Shown here piece by piece: positions 41,174 through 51,937 of a stretch of 64,000 nucleotides of DNA. The notes under the pieces are model-generated. The model worked only from the letters and a program-made list of their open reading frames with translations, did not search any database and was not told the DNA's origin. How positions within the stretch are numbered: the stretch's first letter is position 1; the number at the start of each line of letters is the position of its first letter. The stretch covers positions 6,496,001 through 6,560,000 of the forward strand of contig OZ245838.1 in NCBI GenBank assembly GCA_965228735.1, read 5' to 3'. Position numbers and translations under genes: made by a program. Source of the DNA: Planctomycetota bacterium (GTDB lineage: Bacteria; Planctomycetota; UBA1135; UBA2386).

Positions 41174-42592
41174 ATGGCTGCTAGCAACCAGAACAAGCAG
41201 ATGTTGATCATCTGCGGTGTCGGCGCGCTCATCTGCGCCGGTGCCGTCGGCGGGGGCTTCTACGCCCAGGGCGAGATCGAGACGATCGAGAAGACCATCA
41301 CCACCAAGAAGGGTGAGATCGCCGCCGCGGAAGCCAAGATCGTGAAGATCGGCGCCTCCGAGAAGGAAGTGGTGATCCTGCGCGAGAACCTCGACGAGTA
41401 CGTCAAGATCTTGCCGGACGCCGCGGACCTCACGCAGTTCGTCCGCATGCTCAATCGCTTCGAGCAGCAGTCGGGCGGCAAGAGCTCGATGATGACGCCC
41501 AAGAACAGCAAGGGCGGCGGCAAGAAGCGGTTCGCGCTCATCGAGTACTCGTACGAGCTGACGGGCACGCTGTGGGAGATCATGCGGTTCGTCAACCTCA
41601 TCGAGAACTACGAGCGCTTCGTCAACATCTCCGAGTTCTCGATCCAGCCGGCCAACAACCAGGGCTCGGCGAACGAGGAGACCCGCGACGGCAACGCGAT
41701 CCACCGGATCAAGTTGACGATGCAGACCTACCGCTACAACGGTGCGCAGTCGCAGAAGGAAGTCCGCATCGAGGACTACGACGACCTCAAGGAGTCGCTG
41801 CGCGAGGAGATCTTCGCGCGCATGCAGGCGATCCGCATCGAGAAGTACGAGCACAAGGGCCAGCAGGGCCGCCGTGACATCTTCGTCGATCCGCGTCTGC
41901 GCGGCGACGAGGGCATGCAGGGTCTCTCGCCGGCCGAGCAGCGCGTGATCCTCGAGCGCTACATCACCAAGGTGGACAAGCTGCGCGAGATGCTGCGCCG
42001 AGTCCGCCGCGACGACACGACGCTCTTCGAGCAGTACGCGCTCGAGAAGGGCCTGCGCGACGGCCTGCTCGAGCTGCAGGGCGAGATCGACACCGACGAC
42101 AGCAAGATCACCTACACGCCGTTCCGGATGAAGTGGTCGAAGGACGTCGCCGGCGCGGTCGAGGACATTCGCGCCGACTTCGAACAGGGCAAGATCGACG
42201 GTCCGGCGGACCCGTTCCTGCCGTTGCCCGAGATCGAGGCGCTCGTCGCGCAGATGAAGGAGGAGTGCGAGAACGGCTTCCTCGACGACGCGCGCTCGCG
42301 CTACGAACTCGTCGAGGAGCAGCTGCAGGTCCCGGCCGGTGATCCGCGGCACTCGCTCGCCGTCGAGGCGAAGACCCTGCACAGCAAGGCGGTCACCGCG
42401 ATCGACTTCCGCCAGATGGATCTGCGGATCCAGGGCGTGGTCGTGGATCGCACGGGCCGCTCCGGCGTGCTGCTCAACGGCGAGGTCTTCGAAGAAGGCG
42501 AATACGTGAGCGAAGAGCTGCTCATCAAGATGGTCGAAGAGGAGCAGGTCTGGTTCATCTTCCGCGGGCTCACGCTGGTCCGCACGATGTGA
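41174..42592 (+). CDS. pilO: PilO-like protein with long C-terminal extension
   Basis: TM, coiled coil, ILP, IENYERFVNI; extra ~280 aa. Confidence 0.75.
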   Translation: MAASNQNKQMLIICGVGALICAGAVGGGFYAQGEIETIEKTITTKKGEIAAAEAKIVKIGASEKEVVILRENLDEYVKILPDAADLTQFVRMLNRFEQQSGGKSSMMTPKNSKGGGKKRFALIEYSYELTGTLWEIMRFVNLIENYERFVNISEFSIQPANNQGSANEETRDGNAIHRIKLTMQTYRYNGAQSQKEVRIEDYDDLKESLREEIFARMQAIRIEKYEHKGQQGRRDIFVDPRLRGDEGMQGLSPAEQRVILERYITKVDKLREMLRRVRRDDTTLFEQYALEKGLRDGLLELQGEIDTDDSKITYTPFRMKWSKDVAGAVEDIRADFEQGKIDGPADPFLPLPEIEALVAQMKEECENGFLDDARSRYELVEEQLQVPAGDPRHSLAVEAKTLHSKAVTAIDFRQMDLRIQGVVVDRTGRSGVLLNGEVFEEGEYVSEELLIKMVEEEQVWFIFRGLTLVRTM

Positions 42593-42734
42593 TTTGGGCG
42601 AGCCGCGGGGGAATCGTCGGCAACGTTAAAGCCCCCGCCCCCCGTGGCTCGATGTAAGACAGAACGTGGCCGGCGCCCCCAATTGCGCCGTTCCGCGGGA
42701 CTCGAAACGCACCCCCGCGTGGGGAAGGAACGAC

Positions 42735-44576
42735 ATGCAGGCAGTGAGTAAAGGGATCTTGGCCGCTCTGGCCAGCTGCGTGGCTCTGAGCCTGCCGCTC
42801 GCGGCACAGGAACAGGGTGGCGAGCAGCAGCAGGGGGACATCACGTCCGGGGCGCAGGCCGACCGCGCCAGCCGGCTGACCCTCAAGCTTCGTGACCGCG
42901 ATCTTCGTGAGATCGTCGCGAGCATTCGTCGCAAGACGAACGCGAACATCATCATGGATCCGGGCATCGAGGCGCCGATCACGATCGAGCTCGCCGACAT
43001 TCATTGGCGGCAGGCGCTCGAGCTGGTCGCCGAGCAGGGTGGCTGCATCGTGCGTGAGCTCGAGGGCGGCATCCTCAAGGTGGAGCAGCCGCCGCCGGTC
43101 TACTTCGCGTTCGAGAACACGGACATCCAGAAGGTGATCGACACGATCGCCAAGATCTCGGGTGCCAACATCGTCGTGAACCCGGACGTCCAGGGGCAGA
43201 TCACGGTCCGCCTCAAGAACGTGCCGTGGCGCCACGCGCTCGACGCCTGCGTCAAGACGCTCGGCTTCGTCGTCGTCGAAGAAGACCGCGGCATCCTGCG
43301 CGTCGTCCCCGCGTCGAACATCCAGCAGGACCTCATCACCGAGCCGATCCAGCTGCGCTTCGTGCGCCCGCAGTCGACCTACGTGCCGTTCATCGACAGC
43401 GAATACATCCTCAACCAGCAGGCCAACGTCCAGCTGCAGCAGGGTGAGATCAACTTCACGCTGCTCGACACGCTGCAGACGATGATCACGCCGAACATCG
43501 GCAGCCTGGAGTACGTCCAGGAGACCAACGTCATCGTGGTCCGCGACACGCGTCCGGTCGTCGAGGCCGTCCGGCGCACGATCGCGATGGTCGACCTCGA
43601 ACCGTCGCAGATCTACCTCGACGTCCGCTTCGTGACGACGAGCAACGAGGACATCCTCGACGTCGGCATCAGCCCCGGTGGTTCGGGCTGGGCGGCCAGC
43701 ATCGGCCTCGGCTCCGTGCCGACGCGCCTGCCGTTCGACCTCGGCAGTGGCGGCTGGGAAGACGAGATCATCGCGAACGACACGGGCACGGGCCCGTTCG
43801 CGACCGACGGACTCAACAGCTCGGCCGGCCTGACGATCCCGAACGTGATCTTCGGCGCGCTCGACTTCACGCAGGTCACCGCGACGCTGCGCCTCCTGAA
43901 GCGCGACTCGCGCAGCGAGATCGTGCAGGCGCCGCAGATCGTCGCGCTCGATCACCAGACCGCGACGATCTTCGTCGGCGAGGCCGTGCGCTACGCGCAG
44001 GCCCGCGTCGAGCAGGGTCAGGCCGGTGGTCTGCTGCTCGCGCTCGAAGAGGGTGACGAGTCGCCGGTGAGCGTCGGCTTCCAGCTGCTCGCGACCCCGC
44101 ACATCGTGCCCGGCTCCGACAAGGTGATCCTCGAGGTCATTCCGAAGCGCACGGCGCTCTCGGGCACCGGCAGCACGACGCTCGCGCCGCCCGGCTTCGA
44201 CGTCTTCACGATCGGCACGAGCAGCTCGGAAGAGGGTCGTATCGCCCTGCCGCGCGTCAGCTCGAGCACGCTCGCGACGACGGTGCTGCTGACGGGTGGT
44301 CAGACCGCGGTGCTCGGCGGCCTCAAGACGAAGAACGAGACCGAGAGCGAGACCAAGCTGCCGTTCCTCGGCGACATCCCGATCCTCGGCCACCTCTTCA
44401 AGAACACGACGCGTCAGGAGACGACGTCGACGCTGCTCGTCTTCATCACGCCGACGATCATCCGCACGACGGACGACATCGAGCGGACGATGAGCGACGT
44501 GCTGCGCGAGAAGACGCGTGACCACCGCTCGACGCTCGCGTCGGAGCGCGAGGCGATCTTCGGCGGCGACAACTAG
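42735..44576 (+). CDS. Secretin (PilQ/GspD family)
   Basis: Two STN/N0-like repeats (I.D......ITI.L....W..AL), AP.I..LD...A.I.VG, LPFLGDIPILGHLF, LLVFITPTII. Confidence 0.92.
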   Translation: MQAVSKGILAALASCVALSLPLAAQEQGGEQQQGDITSGAQADRASRLTLKLRDRDLREIVASIRRKTNANIIMDPGIEAPITIELADIHWRQALELVAEQGGCIVRELEGGILKVEQPPPVYFAFENTDIQKVIDTIAKISGANIVVNPDVQGQITVRLKNVPWRHALDACVKTLGFVVVEEDRGILRVVPASNIQQDLITEPIQLRFVRPQSTYVPFIDSEYILNQQANVQLQQGEINFTLLDTLQTMITPNIGSLEYVQETNVIVVRDTRPVVEAVRRTIAMVDLEPSQIYLDVRFVTTSNEDILDVGISPGGSGWAASIGLGSVPTRLPFDLGSGGWEDEIIANDTGTGPFATDGLNSSAGLTIPNVIFGALDFTQVTATLRLLKRDSRSEIVQAPQIVALDHQTATIFVGEAVRYAQARVEQGQAGGLLLALEEGDESPVSVGFQLLATPHIVPGSDKVILEVIPKRTALSGTGSTTLAPPGFDVFTIGTSSSEEGRIALPRVSSSTLATTVLLTGGQTAVLGGLKTKNETESETKLPFLGDIPILGHLFKNTTRQETTSTLLVFITPTIIRTTDDIERTMSDVLREKTRDHRSTLASEREAIFGGDN

Positions 44577-44616
44577 CCGCCGCGCCAACTGGCCGGAACC
44601 GAGTCCACCGGCAGCC

Positions 44617-44659
44617 AGGAACCCCGCGGCAGCTCGACATTGAGCCGCCCGGGGTTCCT
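44617..44659 (+). terminator. Hairpin after secretin gene, probable terminator
   Basis: aggaacccc...ggggttcct stem with inner gctc/gagc; only a short T run follows. Confidence 0.5.
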
Positions 44660-44983
44660 TCGTATCATCCGGCCGCCTGCCCGGGCCGGGTGAACCGCCC
44701 GGCCGCGGTCGGGCGCGCTTCGACGCCGCCGCCCCCCGCGACGCGCGCGAGCGCTGCGTTGCATTTGCCATGGTTTCCGAGCGCCTCCGCCCCCGCACTG
44801 CCCTGGGTCCCGACTCGCACCTCCGGGTGCGCGCCGGCGGCCGGCGGTTCGGGCCAGAGAGCGCGCGCGGGCCTGGTTGTTTCGAGTTCTCCCTGGTCGA
44901 ACCGAAGTCTGCGGCTGCCACCGGCGCCGCCTGGTCCCAGGGGATCGCCCGTCCGGGCGATCGATACCCCGAGGAAGTTCCCC

Positions 44984-47521
44984 TTGAAGCGGATGCTCAT
45001 CAACGCCATCGATCCGGAAGAAAGCCGGATCGCCGTGGTGGAGGACGGCGTGCTGCAAGAGCTGCACGTCGAGTTGGCCAATCGTGAGGCCTATCTAGGC
45101 AACATCTACAAAGGCAAGGTCGTCAACATCGAGCCCAGTATCGGCGCCGCGTTCGTGGCGTTCGGTGGCCGGGTGAACGGCTTCTTGCACGTCAGTGACG
45201 TTCTGCCGGCCTACGGGCGCCCCGAGTTTCGGCTCGAGGACGTGATCGAGGGCCGCGCCCGGGTCGACGCCGAGGACGGGCCCGAGTCGCTGCAGCAGGC
45301 GCTGGACGACGGCGACGACGCGGATGGTGATGCCGACGAGGCCGACGGCGACGGTGAAGCGGCGTCTGCGGCGAGCGCCGAGGACGGTGACGCGCCGGCC
45401 GCCGATGGTGCCGCGGCCGACGACTCGGCTGGCGACGCCGCTGCTCGCGACGACTCTGGCGACGATCGCGAGCCCGAGTCTGGTGTGGCCGAATCTGGCG
45501 CGGTCGATGCCGATTCGGATGCCGACGACGACGGCTGGGACTTGTCGGCCGGAGAAGATGCCGACGGTGACGCGGCCGACGAGGAGGACGAAGACGACGA
45601 CGTCGAGGTCGAACCCGACGACGCGCTCGAGGTCGAACCCGATGAGGACGATGACGACCTCGGCTTCGGTGACGGCGTCGACGAACGCCCGCTGCTCATG
45701 GCCGCGCGGTCCGAGGATGGCGCGGGCGATGGCGGCGAAGCGGACGATTCGGTCGACCCCGAGACCCGCCCGTTCGCGGCCGCGGCCGGCGAGCCCGAGG
45801 CCGACGGCGACGGCGAGGCGTCGCCGCGCAAGAAGCGCACGCGCCGCAAGCGGACCAAGAAGGCCGAGGCGGACGACGGCGAGGTTGCCGCGGCTGCGGC
45901 CGAAGCGAGCAACGACGGCGGCGCCGAGGTGCGTGACGCGGGCGTGGCGGATGCCGATGCCGGTGCCGATGCGGGCGCCGATACCGACACCGCCGCTGCC
46001 GACACCGCCGATGCCGACAGCGCCGAAGGCGATGGCGAATCGGGCGGTGAACGGCGTCGCGGCGCGCGCAAGAAGCGCAAGAAGGCCAGGTCCGGCGGCG
46101 CCGACGAGGACGAGGCTCCGGCGGAGGCCCAGGAGAGCGGCAAGAAGTCGGGCGCGCCGAAGAGCAAGGACGGCGGCGGCCGTTCGCGGCGCGGCGGGCG
46201 TCGCAACAAGAAGAGCGGCAACGACGGCGGCCGGCCGCGCGCGGCCCGGCCGCGGCTCGCGATCGATCAGCTGCTCAAGAAGGGGCAGGAGGTCGTCGTG
46301 CAGATCACCAAGGAGGGCATCGGCAACAAGGGGCCGACGCTGACGACCTACGTGTCGTTGCCGGGGCGCTGCCTCGTGCTCATGCCGTCCCTGCCGAAGT
46401 GCGGCGTCTCCCGCAAGATCGAGGACGCGCGCGAGCGCAAGCGCCTGAAGAAGATCGTCAAGGGGCTCGACGAAACCGGTAGCGGCGGCATCGGCTTCAT
46501 CGTGCGCACGGCCGGCATCAACAAGAGCCAGGAGGACCTGCAGCGCGACCGCGACTACCTCAACAAGATCTGGGAGCTCGTCGCGCAGCGCCTGCAGGTG
46601 ACGCGCGCGCCGGCCCTGCTCTACCAGGAGTCCGATCTCGTGCTGAAGGCGATGCGCGATCAGTTCACGCGCGACATCGCCGACGTCGTCGTCGACAGCG
46701 AGGACGTGTTCATGCGCATCCGCGACTTCGCGGACAAGCTGATGCCGCACCTCAGCGAGCGCATCAAGTCGCACACGGTCACGACGCCGCTCTTCCATCA
46801 CTTCGGCATCGAGAGCGAGGTCGAGAAGCTCTACCAGCCCAAGATCGACATCAGCAACGGCGCGTCGATCGTCATCGACCAGACCGAGGCGCTCGTCGCG
46901 ATCGACGTCAACTCCGGCAAGTACAAGGCCGGGCACGACAGCGACGACACGGCCTACAAGACCAACCTCGAGGCGATCCCGGAGATCGTGCGCCAGCTGC
47001 GGCTGCGCGACCTCGGCGGCCTGATCATCATCGACTTCATCGACATGATGCAGGAGAAGCACCGCCGCGGCGTCGAACGCAAGATGATCGACTCGCTGCG
47101 CGGCGACCGCGCGCGCATCAAGGTCGGTCGGATCTCACCGTTCGGCATGCTCGAAATCACGCGCCAGCGCGTCGGGCCGGGCCTGAAGCGCACCGTGTTC
47201 ATGCAGTGCCCGCACTGCAAGGGTGCTGGCTGGTCCCGGACGGTGCAGAGCAAGGCGCTGTCTGTCTTGCGCGAGACCCGCGCGCTGCTGCACCTCAAGG
47301 GTTATTCGATCCTGCAGGTGTTCGTCGCGCCGGCCGTCGCCGACTACCTCGTCAACCACAAGCGCCGCGCGATCCTCGAACTCGAGGACGCCGTCGGCAA
47401 GTCGATCGCGTTCAAGCCCGAACAGAGCTACCCGATCGACGTGGTGCACTACCGCTTCATGACGGGCGACGGCCAGGAGGCGCGCGTCGCGATCCCGGCC
47501 GGACTCGGGGTGACGGCGTGA
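44984..47521 (+). CDS. rne: Ribonuclease E/G with large insertion in S1 domain
   Basis: GNIYKGKV.NIEPSIGAAFV, QITKEGIGNKGP.LT, AIDVNSG, LRLRDLGGLIIIDFIDM, CPHC Zn-link; TTG start inferred. Confidence 0.92.
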   Translation: MKRMLINAIDPEESRIAVVEDGVLQELHVELANREAYLGNIYKGKVVNIEPSIGAAFVAFGGRVNGFLHVSDVLPAYGRPEFRLEDVIEGRARVDAEDGPESLQQALDDGDDADGDADEADGDGEAASAASAEDGDAPAADGAAADDSAGDAAARDDSGDDREPESGVAESGAVDADSDADDDGWDLSAGEDADGDAADEEDEDDDVEVEPDDALEVEPDEDDDDLGFGDGVDERPLLMAARSEDGAGDGGEADDSVDPETRPFAAAAGEPEADGDGEASPRKKRTRRKRTKKAEADDGEVAAAAAEASNDGGAEVRDAGVADADAGADAGADTDTAAADTADADSAEGDGESGGERRRGARKKRKKARSGGADEDEAPAEAQESGKKSGAPKSKDGGGRSRRGGRRNKKSGNDGGRPRAARPRLAIDQLLKKGQEVVVQITKEGIGNKGPTLTTYVSLPGRCLVLMPSLPKCGVSRKIEDARERKRLKKIVKGLDETGSGGIGFIVRTAGINKSQEDLQRDRDYLNKIWELVAQRLQVTRAPALLYQESDLVLKAMRDQFTRDIADVVVDSEDVFMRIRDFADKLMPHLSERIKSHTVTTPLFHHFGIESEVEKLYQPKIDISNGASIVIDQTEALVAIDVNSGKYKAGHDSDDTAYKTNLEAIPEIVRQLRLRDLGGLIIIDFIDMMQEKHRRGVERKMIDSLRGDRARIKVGRISPFGMLEITRQRVGPGLKRTVFMQCPHCKGAGWSRTVQSKALSVLRETRALLHLKGYSILQVFVAPAVADYLVNHKRRAILELEDAVGKSIAFKPEQSYPIDVVHYRFMTGDGQEARVAIPAGLGVTA

Positions 47522-49442: not shown

Positions 49443-49849
49443 CGAGGCGACGCTTTCGCTGCGCCGACGCAGGCGCCGGCCTGTTTGCGGAAACGGGAGG
49501 ATTCGCAGGCGCGGCTTGCGCCAGCGGTGCCGGCATGGAACCCATCAAGACCGTGGGCGGCACAGAGAATGGCGATGCGATCATCGCCACGATTGGCGGT
49601 GATTCAGCTGGCGCTGCTGCTTGGTGTCGGATTGGCCTGCTGACGATTCTCTTCCTGCTGCCTGTGCCCTTCTTCGACCCCTGAGACTCGCCGCGCCAGC
49701 CCAAGCACCTCGACCTGGCGGACAACACGTCGCCGGCCTTCGGCCCGTGGCAGCTGTCGCGTGCCGTTCGTTCTTCGGGACCGAAACTCGCCGTGGCCGT
49801 CCGCGCGCGGTTACCATCGGTTACTTCCCCCCAACCCCCCGGAGACAGC

Positions 49850-51070
49850 ATGCAGATTCGCCAGAAGCCAGTGGCACAAGTGCTGCTCGGCGCTGTCCTC
49901 CTCGCCTGTCCGTCCCTGCTCGCGCAGGATGACCCGGCTGCGGCCGAGTCGATGACGGCGATCGAGAAGGAGTACGAAGCCGCCAGTGAGCAGTGGATGA
50001 AGTCGTATCGTTCCGCTTCGAAGGAGGAGCGGCAGAAGCTCGTCAACGAACGGCCGGACGCCAAGACGTGGCTGCCGCGCGTGCAGCAGATCCTCGCGGC
50101 GCGGCCGCAGTCGGATGACGGCTGCGCGGCGGCGATCTGGGTCGTGCGCGTCGCGCGCGCCAGCGGCAGCGAGCTCGAGAACGCGCTCGACGTCCTCGCG
50201 CAGCATCACCTCGCCGATGAACGGCTCGGCGACCTGATGCTGACGTTGTCGCGCAACCCGGCGCCGGCCGTCGGGTTGTTCCTGACGAAGGCCGAAGCCG
50301 CGGCGGAAGGCGAGATGCTCGCCAAGGTCTGCTTCGCCCACGGCTCGCACCTCAAGTCGGCCGCGGGTCTGGCGAACCGGATGGCCGGCGCCAGCGACGA
50401 GGAGAAGACGCAGTACGCGGGCTTCTACGGTCGCCAGACCGTGGACGTGCTCGCGGAGGCGGACGCCAGCGAGTTCGAGAGCCGCGCGGTGAAGTACTTC
50501 GAACGGATCCTCGCCGACGATGCGATGCGCGCGGTCGAGTACTACCGCGGCACGATGGGCGAAGCCGCCGAGGGCAACCTCTTCGAGCTGCAGCGTCTGG
50601 CGATCGGCAAGGTCGCGCCCGACATCGTCGGCGAAGACATCGACGGCGTGCCGATGAAGCTCAGCGACTACCGCGGCAAGGTCGTCGTGATCGACTTCTG
50701 GGGCGATTGGTGAGGCCCGTGCCGGGCCATGTACCCACACGAGCGGTCGCTCGTGAAGCGTCTCAGTGACAAGCCCTTCGCGCTGCTCGGCGTCAACTCC
50801 GATCGCGATCGCGAGAAGATCAAGCAGATCATCGAAGAGAAGGGGCTGACGTGGCGTTCGTTCTGGAACGGCGGCAGCACCAGCGGGCCGATCTCCACCC
50901 GCTGGAACGTGCGCGGTTGGCCGACGATCTACGTCCTCGACGAAGAGGGCGTGATCCGGTTCAAGAACGTGCGCGGTGAAGCCATGGACCACGCCGTCGA
51001 CTCGCTGCTTGCGAAGCTCGAGGCGAAGTCCGGCGCCGCTGGCGATCAGAAGAGCGGCGGCGAGCGGTAG
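49850..51070 (+). CDS. TlpA/ResA-like thioredoxin-fold protein with selenocysteine (UxxC), read through TGA 50711-50713
   Basis: VVVIDFWGDW-TGA-GPCRAM continues in frame into 50729-51070 (LLGVNSD, WNVRGWPTIYVLD); hairpin just downstream; signal peptide, GGAGA RBS. Confidence 0.88.
50738..50755 (+). promoter_or_regulatory. Candidate bacterial SECIS stem-loop
   Basis: CACGAGC-GGTC-GCTCGTG; G-led apical loop begins 31 nt after the UGA. Confidence 0.7.
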
Positions 51071-51088
51071 CTCGCCCGCGCGGCATGT

Positions 51089-51937
51089 TCACACGGGTTG
51101 CTCGCGGAAGCGCCCGTGCTTGAGGAAATGCAGCACCTGGACGATCGCGGCGTCGTCCTGCGCGAGTTGCGTGTGGCCGAGCAGCATGCCGACGCTGTCG
51201 GTCTGCTCCGGTAGCTGCGCTTCTTCGACTCCGACGCGGCCGTCGTCGTCGCCGGGGATCGCGGTCGACCAGCCCTCGGGCGGCGCGGTGCCGAACATGC
51301 ACCCGATGCGCGCGACGTCGAGCCGCGGCAGCTTGGCGTAGATCGGATCGCCCGGCACGAGCTGCTTCGCCGACTCGCCGCCGAACGTCTGGAAGAACCA
51401 GCTGTCCCGGTAGGTGCTCGCGAGGTGCGCGCCGCGGTGCGGTGAGCCGAGGAACACGCAGCTGCTCGCCGGGCGCGCGTCCGGCCGCGCCAGGTAATGC
51501 CGGATCACGAGGCCGCCGAGCGAGTGCCCGACGAAGTGGATCTCCGGCAGCTCGTCGTCGCGGCCGTCGAGCCGTTCGTCGATCGCGGCCTGCAGCCTCG
51601 CGCTGTGACCCTCGATGCCGTGCTCGGTGCTCGGGTACGACGTGTTGAGCACCTCGTAACCGTGCGCCTCGAGCGCCTCCTCGAGGCGCCACAACGACAG
51701 CGACGATCGCAGCATGCCGTGCTGCAGCACGACGAGCTGCGGCCGCTCGCGTTCGTTCTGCAGTTCGGCGCGCCGGTCGAATTCGTCGAACGAGCGGATC
51801 GTGTCGCGCACGTCGAACGGCGTGATCACGCAGCTCGCGCCGATCAGCAGGAGCAGCGCGATCGTGGCGCGGACCAGGCCTTGGCGGATTCGTCGCCACC
51901 GGCCGGTGGGGCGAGGGCTGTCCGGAACACCGTTCAT
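51089..51937 (-). CDS. Alpha/beta hydrolase (lipase/esterase-like)
   Basis: LQHG, GHSLGG nucleophile elbow, LGSPHRG, DDGRV, GH. Confidence 0.88.
   Translation of the reverse strand: MNGVPDSPRPTGRWRRIRQGLVRATIALLLLIGASCVITPFDVRDTIRSFDEFDRRAELQNERERPQLVVLQHGMLRSSLSLWRLEEALEAHGYEVLNTSYPSTEHGIEGHSARLQAAIDERLDGRDDELPEIHFVGHSLGGLVIRHYLARPDARPASSCVFLGSPHRGAHLASTYRDSWFFQTFGGESAKQLVPGDPIYAKLPRLDVARIGCMFGTAPPEGWSTAIPGDDDGRVGVEEAQLPEQTDSVGMLLGHTQLAQDDAAIVQVLHFLKHGRFREQPV

Follow-up and report, generated by a model that had tools for sequence, protein, structure and literature searches.

The question raised by this locus, from a member of the Planctomycetota, is whether two adjacent open reading frames are separate genes or the halves of a single gene whose in-frame TGA encodes selenocysteine (Sec). 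In the window (the whole 64,000-nucleotide stretch of DNA that was analysed), calling with translation table 11 splits the frame into ORFs of 306 aa (49793-50713) and 113 aa (50729-51070). With TGA read as U, positions 49850-51070 of the forward strand form one frame of 406 aa with one recoded codon, from ATG at 49850 to TAG at 51070, in agreement with the first-pass annotation, which had described a hidden selenoprotein cut into two ORFs. The features of the locus are as follows.

49850..51070, forward strand: full gene, 406 codons through one TGA, with GGAG 6 nt upstream of the ATG and a start Met shared by close homologs (MQIR...)
49850..49924, forward strand: predicted cleavable signal peptide, about residues 1-25, ending in small-x-Ala before Gln (by eye and hydropathy, homolog N-termini, and low pLDDT at residues 1-30)
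49925..50596, forward strand: all-alpha N-terminal domain, about residues 26-249, with 11 helices in the model and no Pfam or NCBIfam match
50597..51034, forward strand: TlpA/ResA/DsbE-type thioredoxin domain, about residues 250-395 (Pfam and structure matches)
50711..50722, forward strand: active site U288-G-P-C291, with the TGA at 50711-50713
50738..50755, forward strand: predicted SECIS hairpin with a 7-bp stem and GGUC loop, overlapping the codons for H-E-R-S-L-V

Probable decoding of the in-frame TGA as selenocysteine

U288 occupies the first Cys position of the TlpA/ResA W-C-G-P-C site (residues 282-291 are D-F-W-G-D-W-U-G-P-C). Matches to the Pfam families AhpC-TSA, Redoxin and Thioredoxin_8 (residues 252-378), all above their cut-offs, straddle the TGA, so the frame does run on from W-TGA-G-P-C through the thioredoxin fold as had been claimed, and the in-frame UGA lies inside a continuous conserved domain, as is expected of a selenoprotein gene. 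The codon at 50711-13 is TGA, not TGC or TGT, in contigs of three studies, which span it with zero differing letters; these contigs are near-identical to the window and possibly the source of the same DNA, and four of the 24 listed runs were used, the fourth having no own-strain piece over the TGA site.

The machinery for Sec insertion is present in the genome (7.19 Mb, a single contig), where selA, selB, selD and tRNA-Sec, the four genes that the first-pass annotation had proposed to look for, all score above their cut-offs. The selD gene has an in-frame TGA of its own, and selA is above cut-off in 41/41 genomes of a sample covering genus, family and order. Homologs of the present gene were found in 38 of these 41 genomes. 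Counted by hand, 67 matches reach E <= 1e-40, of which 66 have a TGA; at 29 of the 30 loci examined it stands at the active site, in 30 genes altogether. Three further long paralogs in the genome itself share both the TGA site and the 18-nt hairpin. Of 925 database homologs the best 120 were compared: 29 terminate at the residue just ahead of the TGA, and of the remaining 91, 83 carry CxxC at the site; Cys is found at the TGA position in full-length homologs, the Cys/TGA pairing that had been suggested as a check. The named database homologs are planctomycete, and an exact-pattern scan of GTDB genomes gave at least 120 stretches, the 80 titles among the matches listed being mostly Planctomycetota with some Verrucomicrobiota. 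Gene callers halve this gene family throughout the order, so that its members go unrecognised among hypothetical proteins.

On this sequence evidence, the locus is very likely one gene whose in-frame UGA is decoded as Sec by SelA, SelB, SelD and tRNA-Sec. The numerous in-frame TGA codons genome-wide might instead be explained by UGA being read as Cys or another standard residue, whether by a code changed throughout the genome or by a tRNA-UCA charged with Cys, but we consider this highly improbable, since TGA terminates 2211 of the 3317 long coding-like frames of the genome and RF2 is present, which indicates site-specific recoding and no changed code, and since the sole tRNA found with a UCA anticodon scores as tRNA-Sec, selA and selD are intact, and the read-through sites coincide with redox-Cys positions. 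Scarcely credible is the remaining alternative, that the TGA is a real stop in a pseudogene, a sequencing error or a boundary between two cooperating genes: although databases annotate the halves separately (the 29 of 120 homologs above) and a truncated product may well dominate in low selenium, the TGA is fixed in all four paralogs and throughout an order, the contigs of three studies show the same codon, and the second ORF begins past both active-site residues with no GGAG upstream.

Several database homologs of this gene (P0017, P0045, P0047, P0082, P0104 and P0041; L017, L045-type) carry two such domains in tandem and so have two active sites: some begin just past one TGA site and stop at the following one, and others have a Cys site first and then end at a TGA site. 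No conserved neighbourhood was found around the gene, the largest neighbour family occurring at four of the examined loci. In the window, an alpha/beta hydrolase gene (51089-51937, reverse strand) converges on it across an 18-nt gap and is not conserved beside homologs. Farther downstream, a reverse transcriptase gene (PF00078, 54937-57757), group II intron-like by eye, meets at its end an opposite-strand IS3-like transposase pair. The region 41174-47521 contains a secretin gene (42666-44576) with pilus-assembly-like neighbours, followed by an RNase E/G gene (44690-47521) that carries a long acidic low-complexity insert.

A conserved hairpin past the TGA

The hairpin CACGAGC-GGUC-GCUCGUG occupies +28..+45 relative to the TGA, with a 4-nt loop that starts with GG and lies 31 nt past the TGA, and a predicted energy of -10.5 kcal/mol. 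The bSECIS model, as given in the available part of PMC13188914, calls for a loop of 3-9 nt, a stem of 4-16 bp, G in the first two loop positions, a spacing of 16-37 nt and an MFE <= -7.5 kcal/mol, and the hairpin satisfies all of these constraints when scored with our own script (not bSECISearch). The fold is unremarkable by stability alone (z = -1.68 for a 60-nt stretch), the same hairpin filter was passed by 103 of 600 control TGA codons at the ends of long open frames, and an Rfam scan of window positions 49500-51500 gave zero matches at gathering score. The case for function is instead one of conservation, that is, of selection on the RNA. In 29 distinct TGA genes the codons that form the hairpin are frozen (CGG for Arg in 27/27, TCG for Ser in 27/27, CTC for Leu in 29/29, and GTG in 28/29), against a genome usage of 27%, 42% and 52% for CGG, TCG and CTC, respectively, and flanking synonymous sites vary in the same 29 genes.

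Pairing is kept in 96.9% of cells in 28 aligned TGA genes, compared with 15-42% in slid controls. The changes seen within the hairpin in these genes are one compensatory pair and one G-U, and covariation is weak, because 22 of 500 shuffles reach the compensatory signal. The exact 18-mer is present in 24/28 TGA genes, which are kin to each other, versus 2/14 metagenomic Cys-type genes encoding HER(S/T)LV, which use varied codons for this peptide. The hairpin is absent from two TGA homologs (L044, L050), and the strict hairpin filter was failed by a short paralog in the same genome (G000:206071) and by the genome's DsbD. The GGUC-loop hairpin reported earlier downstream of the TGA is therefore present, follows the bSECIS rules and is conserved among TGA genes, and as a predicted SECIS it very likely guides Sec insertion.

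Architecture and proposed reductase function

The N-terminus of the protein has a basic n-region, a hydrophobic core (10-residue mean hydropathy 2.93) and an x-A-Q sequence that is conserved in homologs, as judged by eye and hydropathy. A lipoprotein reading based on Cys20 was rejected; Cys20 is not conserved, which makes a lipoprotein anchor unlikely. The protein is very probably exported and is predicted to be soluble in the periplasm. Modelled with AlphaFold2 from an alignment of 81 sequences (pLDDT 93.8, pTM 0.87), the protein consists of a low-confidence N-terminus, an all-helical domain (~35-249) and the TlpA-type domain, and the long helical N-terminal domain of the first-pass annotation is accordingly predicted to be all-alpha. 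Folded alone and without an alignment, this domain gave a pLDDT of 55.5 and no Foldseek match at E <= 0.001. Hidden redox cysteines within it were considered and rejected, C92 occurring in 7/120 and C161 in 52/120 homologs, with none invariant. The domain may serve as a substrate-binding platform.

The TlpA-type domain superposes on 3gl3, 4grf, 3fkf and 2f9s with Z scores of 19-20 and rmsd values of 1.7-2.1 A over 135-139 residues, and the best structure matches are DsbE, ResA and Bacteroides TlpA-like domains; 4yod (Bacteroides caccae) aligns with residues 89-387, loosely (Z 15.5, rmsd 5.8 A). Matches to ResA (NF002854, 70.6/170 bits), TlpA (NF047696, 61/230 bits) and DsbE (TIGR00385, 45.2/123 bits) fell short of the NCBIfam cut-offs, as did those to the UGC-motif TlpA/ResA-like families NF041054 (32/300 bits) and NF053656 (21.9/100 bits), the motif here being U-G-P-C and not U-G-C or TUGYCR.

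ResA, TlpA and CcmG/DsbE are extracytoplasmic CxxC reductases in which the first residue of the motif attacks a substrate disulfide and the second resolves the mixed bond, and which are kept reduced by DsbD or CcdA. The ResA of Bacillus, the TlpA of Bradyrhizobium, CcmG/DsbE and the Bacteroides TlpA-like proteins share their fold with the protein described here, which differs from ResA, TlpA and CcmG in having Sec for the first Cys, no membrane anchor and no cytochrome c maturation operon. We propose that the gene probably encodes a TlpA/ResA-type Sec reductase with a U-G-P-C site that is recharged via a Sec-containing DsbD. Sec288, in place of the attacking Cys, would attack a disulfide (or an oxidised thiol) of an envelope protein chosen by the helical N-terminal domain, and the mixed bond so formed would be resolved by Cys291. 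That would leave an Se-S bond, whose reduction would fall to the N-terminal domains of the only DsbD in the cell; this DsbD, itself UxxC in its C-terminal thioredoxin domain, would draw on cytoplasmic thioredoxin, so that electrons would pass from cytoplasmic thioredoxin to Sec DsbD, to the Sec TlpA-type enzyme and on to envelope substrates.

The DsbD of this relay is the genome's single DsbD_TM match, an 849-aa frame with TGA in its UxxC motif (G000:C1:4263182-4265728, reverse strand; L199), composed of two DsbD_N-like repeats, a transmembrane domain and a C-terminal thioredoxin domain bearing U-x-x-C. That the sole DsbD carries UxxC suggests a selenium-rich envelope reducing relay. In 30 loci of relatives (L223-L252), the DsbD TGA is kept in 27 of the 29 in which the motif was found and is replaced by Cys in two; the hairpin past it keeps its stem and varies in its loop. 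The DsbD-N complex 1z5y is among the structure matches of the TlpA-type protein. Gene order gives the DsbD link no support, TlpA-like genes adjoining DsbD in 3 of the 30 DsbD loci. Strict coupling of Sec TlpA to Sec DsbD across genomes was also considered and rejected: one genome (G018) combines TGA-type TlpA genes with a DsbD of the Cys type, and two others (G015, G032) have a TGA-type DsbD and no TlpA match. The third residue past the CxxC position, which is Glu in ResA, TlpA and CcmG, is Met here, so the motif by itself does not establish a reducing role; overall, a reducing role fed by DsbD seems likely.

Two other functions for a true selenoprotein have to be weighed against this one. Sec enzymes often reduce peroxides, and this fact, together with AhpC-TSA being the top Pfam match, would fit a peroxidase. 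DsbA (PF01323) was sought in this 93%-complete single-contig genome and gave no match, so another protein may form disulfides there, and room is left for an oxidase or isomerase role of the Sec TlpA-type enzyme. Nevertheless, a peroxidase or an envelope oxidase/isomerase in place of a DsbD-fed reductase is unlikely, as W-U-G-P-C is a thioredoxin-like site, the Sec peroxiredoxin motif PxxxTxxU is absent from the protein, the genome encodes separate Sec peroxiredoxins, and the structural neighbours are of the TlpA/ResA type. Still less likely is a dedicated role in cytochrome c maturation, in which the enzyme would reduce apocytochrome CxxCH as CcmG and ResA do. The best NCBIfam match, although below cut-off, is ResA, the best folds are DsbE and ResA, and the genome encodes both a cytochrome c assembly protein and DsbD; on the other hand, a membrane anchor is not apparent, the assembly gene (G000:791682) is far from the window, the selenoprotein gene has no conserved neighbours, and there are three paralogs with the large extra domain.

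Known UxxC families and the predicted selenoproteome of the genome

The gene is a further member of an already catalogued kind of selenoprotein, the UxxC TlpA-like proteins; its architecture and SECIS are not described in the available parts of the cited sources. The thiol-disulfide isomerase-like UxxC family, first reported in 2005 (PMC1088965), is listed as cd02966 in Table 1 of PMC13188914 and as PF13905 in PMC9312934. It shares with our gene the TlpA-like thioredoxin domain (PF13905 is above cut-off here), the UxxC motif and its prediction from Cys/TGA pairs, whereas the 220-residue helical N-terminal domain and signal peptide go unmentioned in the available descriptions of that family, from which the gene is set apart by description only. 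Both Pfam families behind the "Redoxin family protein" (PF08534) and "Prx-like thiol:disulfide oxidoreductase" (PF00578) UxxC selenoproteins (PMC13188914, PMC9312934, PMC2398784) are likewise above cut-off in the present protein, and the motif is the same; for these entries the defining features are domain and motif only, and the present architecture does not appear in the available tables.

Two "thiol-disulfide isomerase-like thioredoxin" candidates reported in 2016 from planctomycete P1 are split into two genes in IMG, are scored "SECIS: no" and have their closest Cys homolog in Singulisphaera (PMC4807772 Table S9). They come from a planctomycete and are split like the gene here, for which a Singulisphaera TlpA is a full-length homolog (39% over 388 aa), and, compared by description only, they likely belong to the same subfamily.

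The cd02953 family, which we take to be the DsbD gamma domain, is a precedent for the Sec-containing C-terminal domain of the DsbD in this genome. It was reported as a thiol-disulfide interchange UxxC family from 22 marine metagenome sequences, and the available part of that report contains no mention of a relay between Sec DsbD and Sec TlpA proteins (PMC2398784). A literature search for DsbD with selenocysteine, judged by listing, found nothing on a Sec DsbD relay, and a search for TlpA selenoproteins, SECIS elements or selenoproteomes of Planctomycetes/Planctomycetota, to which the BSepDB web database was external, gave no match. Planctomycete genomes are in the available input list of PMC13326102, and BSepDB entries for the gene's family may therefore exist.

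A genome-wide read-through scan for codons with coding-like sequence on both sides gave 197 TGA, 120 TAG and 30 TAA codons, of which 45, 9 and 3, respectively, were followed by a SECIS-like hairpin. After a second, motif-based pass, 55 TGA sites were picked by eye and 52 read-through proteins were scanned, and 45 TGA codons in 44 candidate selenoprotein genes were kept, a hand-curated count that may miss sites near gene ends. The 10 sites left out are 1750195, 2235166 and eight rejected loci (L180, L182, L184, L201, L212, L217, L221, L222), dropped because the TGA lay between two genes or outside a domain, had neither family nor hairpin, or did not fall at a Cys site. A family match spans the TGA in 30 of the 44 candidate genes, and the other 14 are supported by paralogs, by relatives, or by a motif together with a hairpin; the strict hairpin filter is passed by 31 of the 45 TGA codons, and 24 of the 44 candidates have an export-like hydrophobic N-terminal stretch (mean hydropathy >= 2.0).

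The genome also has two strong matches to heme-copper oxidase subunit I, and CtaD/CoxA matches at E <= 1e-50 occur in 38 of the 41 relatives, above cut-off in only two. According to the available part of a 2026 review, aerobic bacteria seldom retain selenoproteins and the richest organisms are mostly anaerobes (PMC13188914), while Peng (2016) found Sec use to be common in aerobes, with 78.3% of selenoprotein-rich organisms being anaerobic (PMC5029168). Tentatively, and with somewhat more doubt than confidence, we propose that an oxygen-respiring planctomycete order may run its envelope reducing pathway largely on selenium, with Sec DsbD feeding exported Sec enzymes that include the four-paralog TlpA subfamily, as part of a selenoproteome of ~44 genes with families outside the 2026 inventory. 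If this is true, ~44 genes would be near the largest selenoproteome on record, the BSepDB top ten having 46-63 selenoprotein genes and including no planctomycete in the part of that source available (PMC13326102). Because Sec use in aerobes is already reported as common in the accessible part of PMC5029168, the surprise would lie in how large the set is and where it is located, not in Sec use itself, and if confirmed it would offer a test case for the reasons behind Sec retention in an oxidising compartment. The gene itself is an expected catch; the wider value lies in its genome context of three paralogs, ~44 candidates and a Sec DsbD.

Among the other candidates, a cobalamin-independent methionine synthase-like gene (PF01717; G000:C1:1761498-1762646, forward strand; L183) has an in-frame TGA in R-T-F-M-U-A. 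In the relatives examined (L253-L264), 7 of 12 loci have the TGA and a hairpin at the identical position, and 5 of 12 have a Cys codon and lack that hairpin. This Cys/TGA family is absent from Table 1 of PMC13188914, and a literature search gave nothing relevant; these genes are a candidate new selenoprotein family on sequence grounds. A second, mostly signal-peptide-bearing family (L193, L204, L216 and L218, with L188 and L211) has the motif G-H-P-L-G-x-T-U and no Pfam or NCBIfam match, and contains TGA in 30 of 31 matches from 19 of the 41 genomes. Four FG-GAP repeat proteins (L176, L191, L214, L210) have U-C or C-U pairs, and one of them (L191) has TGA in 23/23 matches, likewise from 19 of the 41 genomes; four ASPIC/FG-GAP selenoprotein candidates have been listed in planctomycetes (PMC4807772 Table S9). 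Candidates with no family at the site include a 199-aa protein with two TGA codons and a hairpin past each (G000:C1:1929-2525, reverse strand; L172), a 652-aa U-M-C read-through product ending in a DsbD_N domain (L206) and two small UxxC read-through products (L194, L202). Finally, in one relative (G004, locus L230) selA is present, DsbD is of the Cys type, and there is neither a long TlpA of the TGA type nor a match to three other TGA families, a pattern that possibly reflects shrinkage of its selenoproteome.
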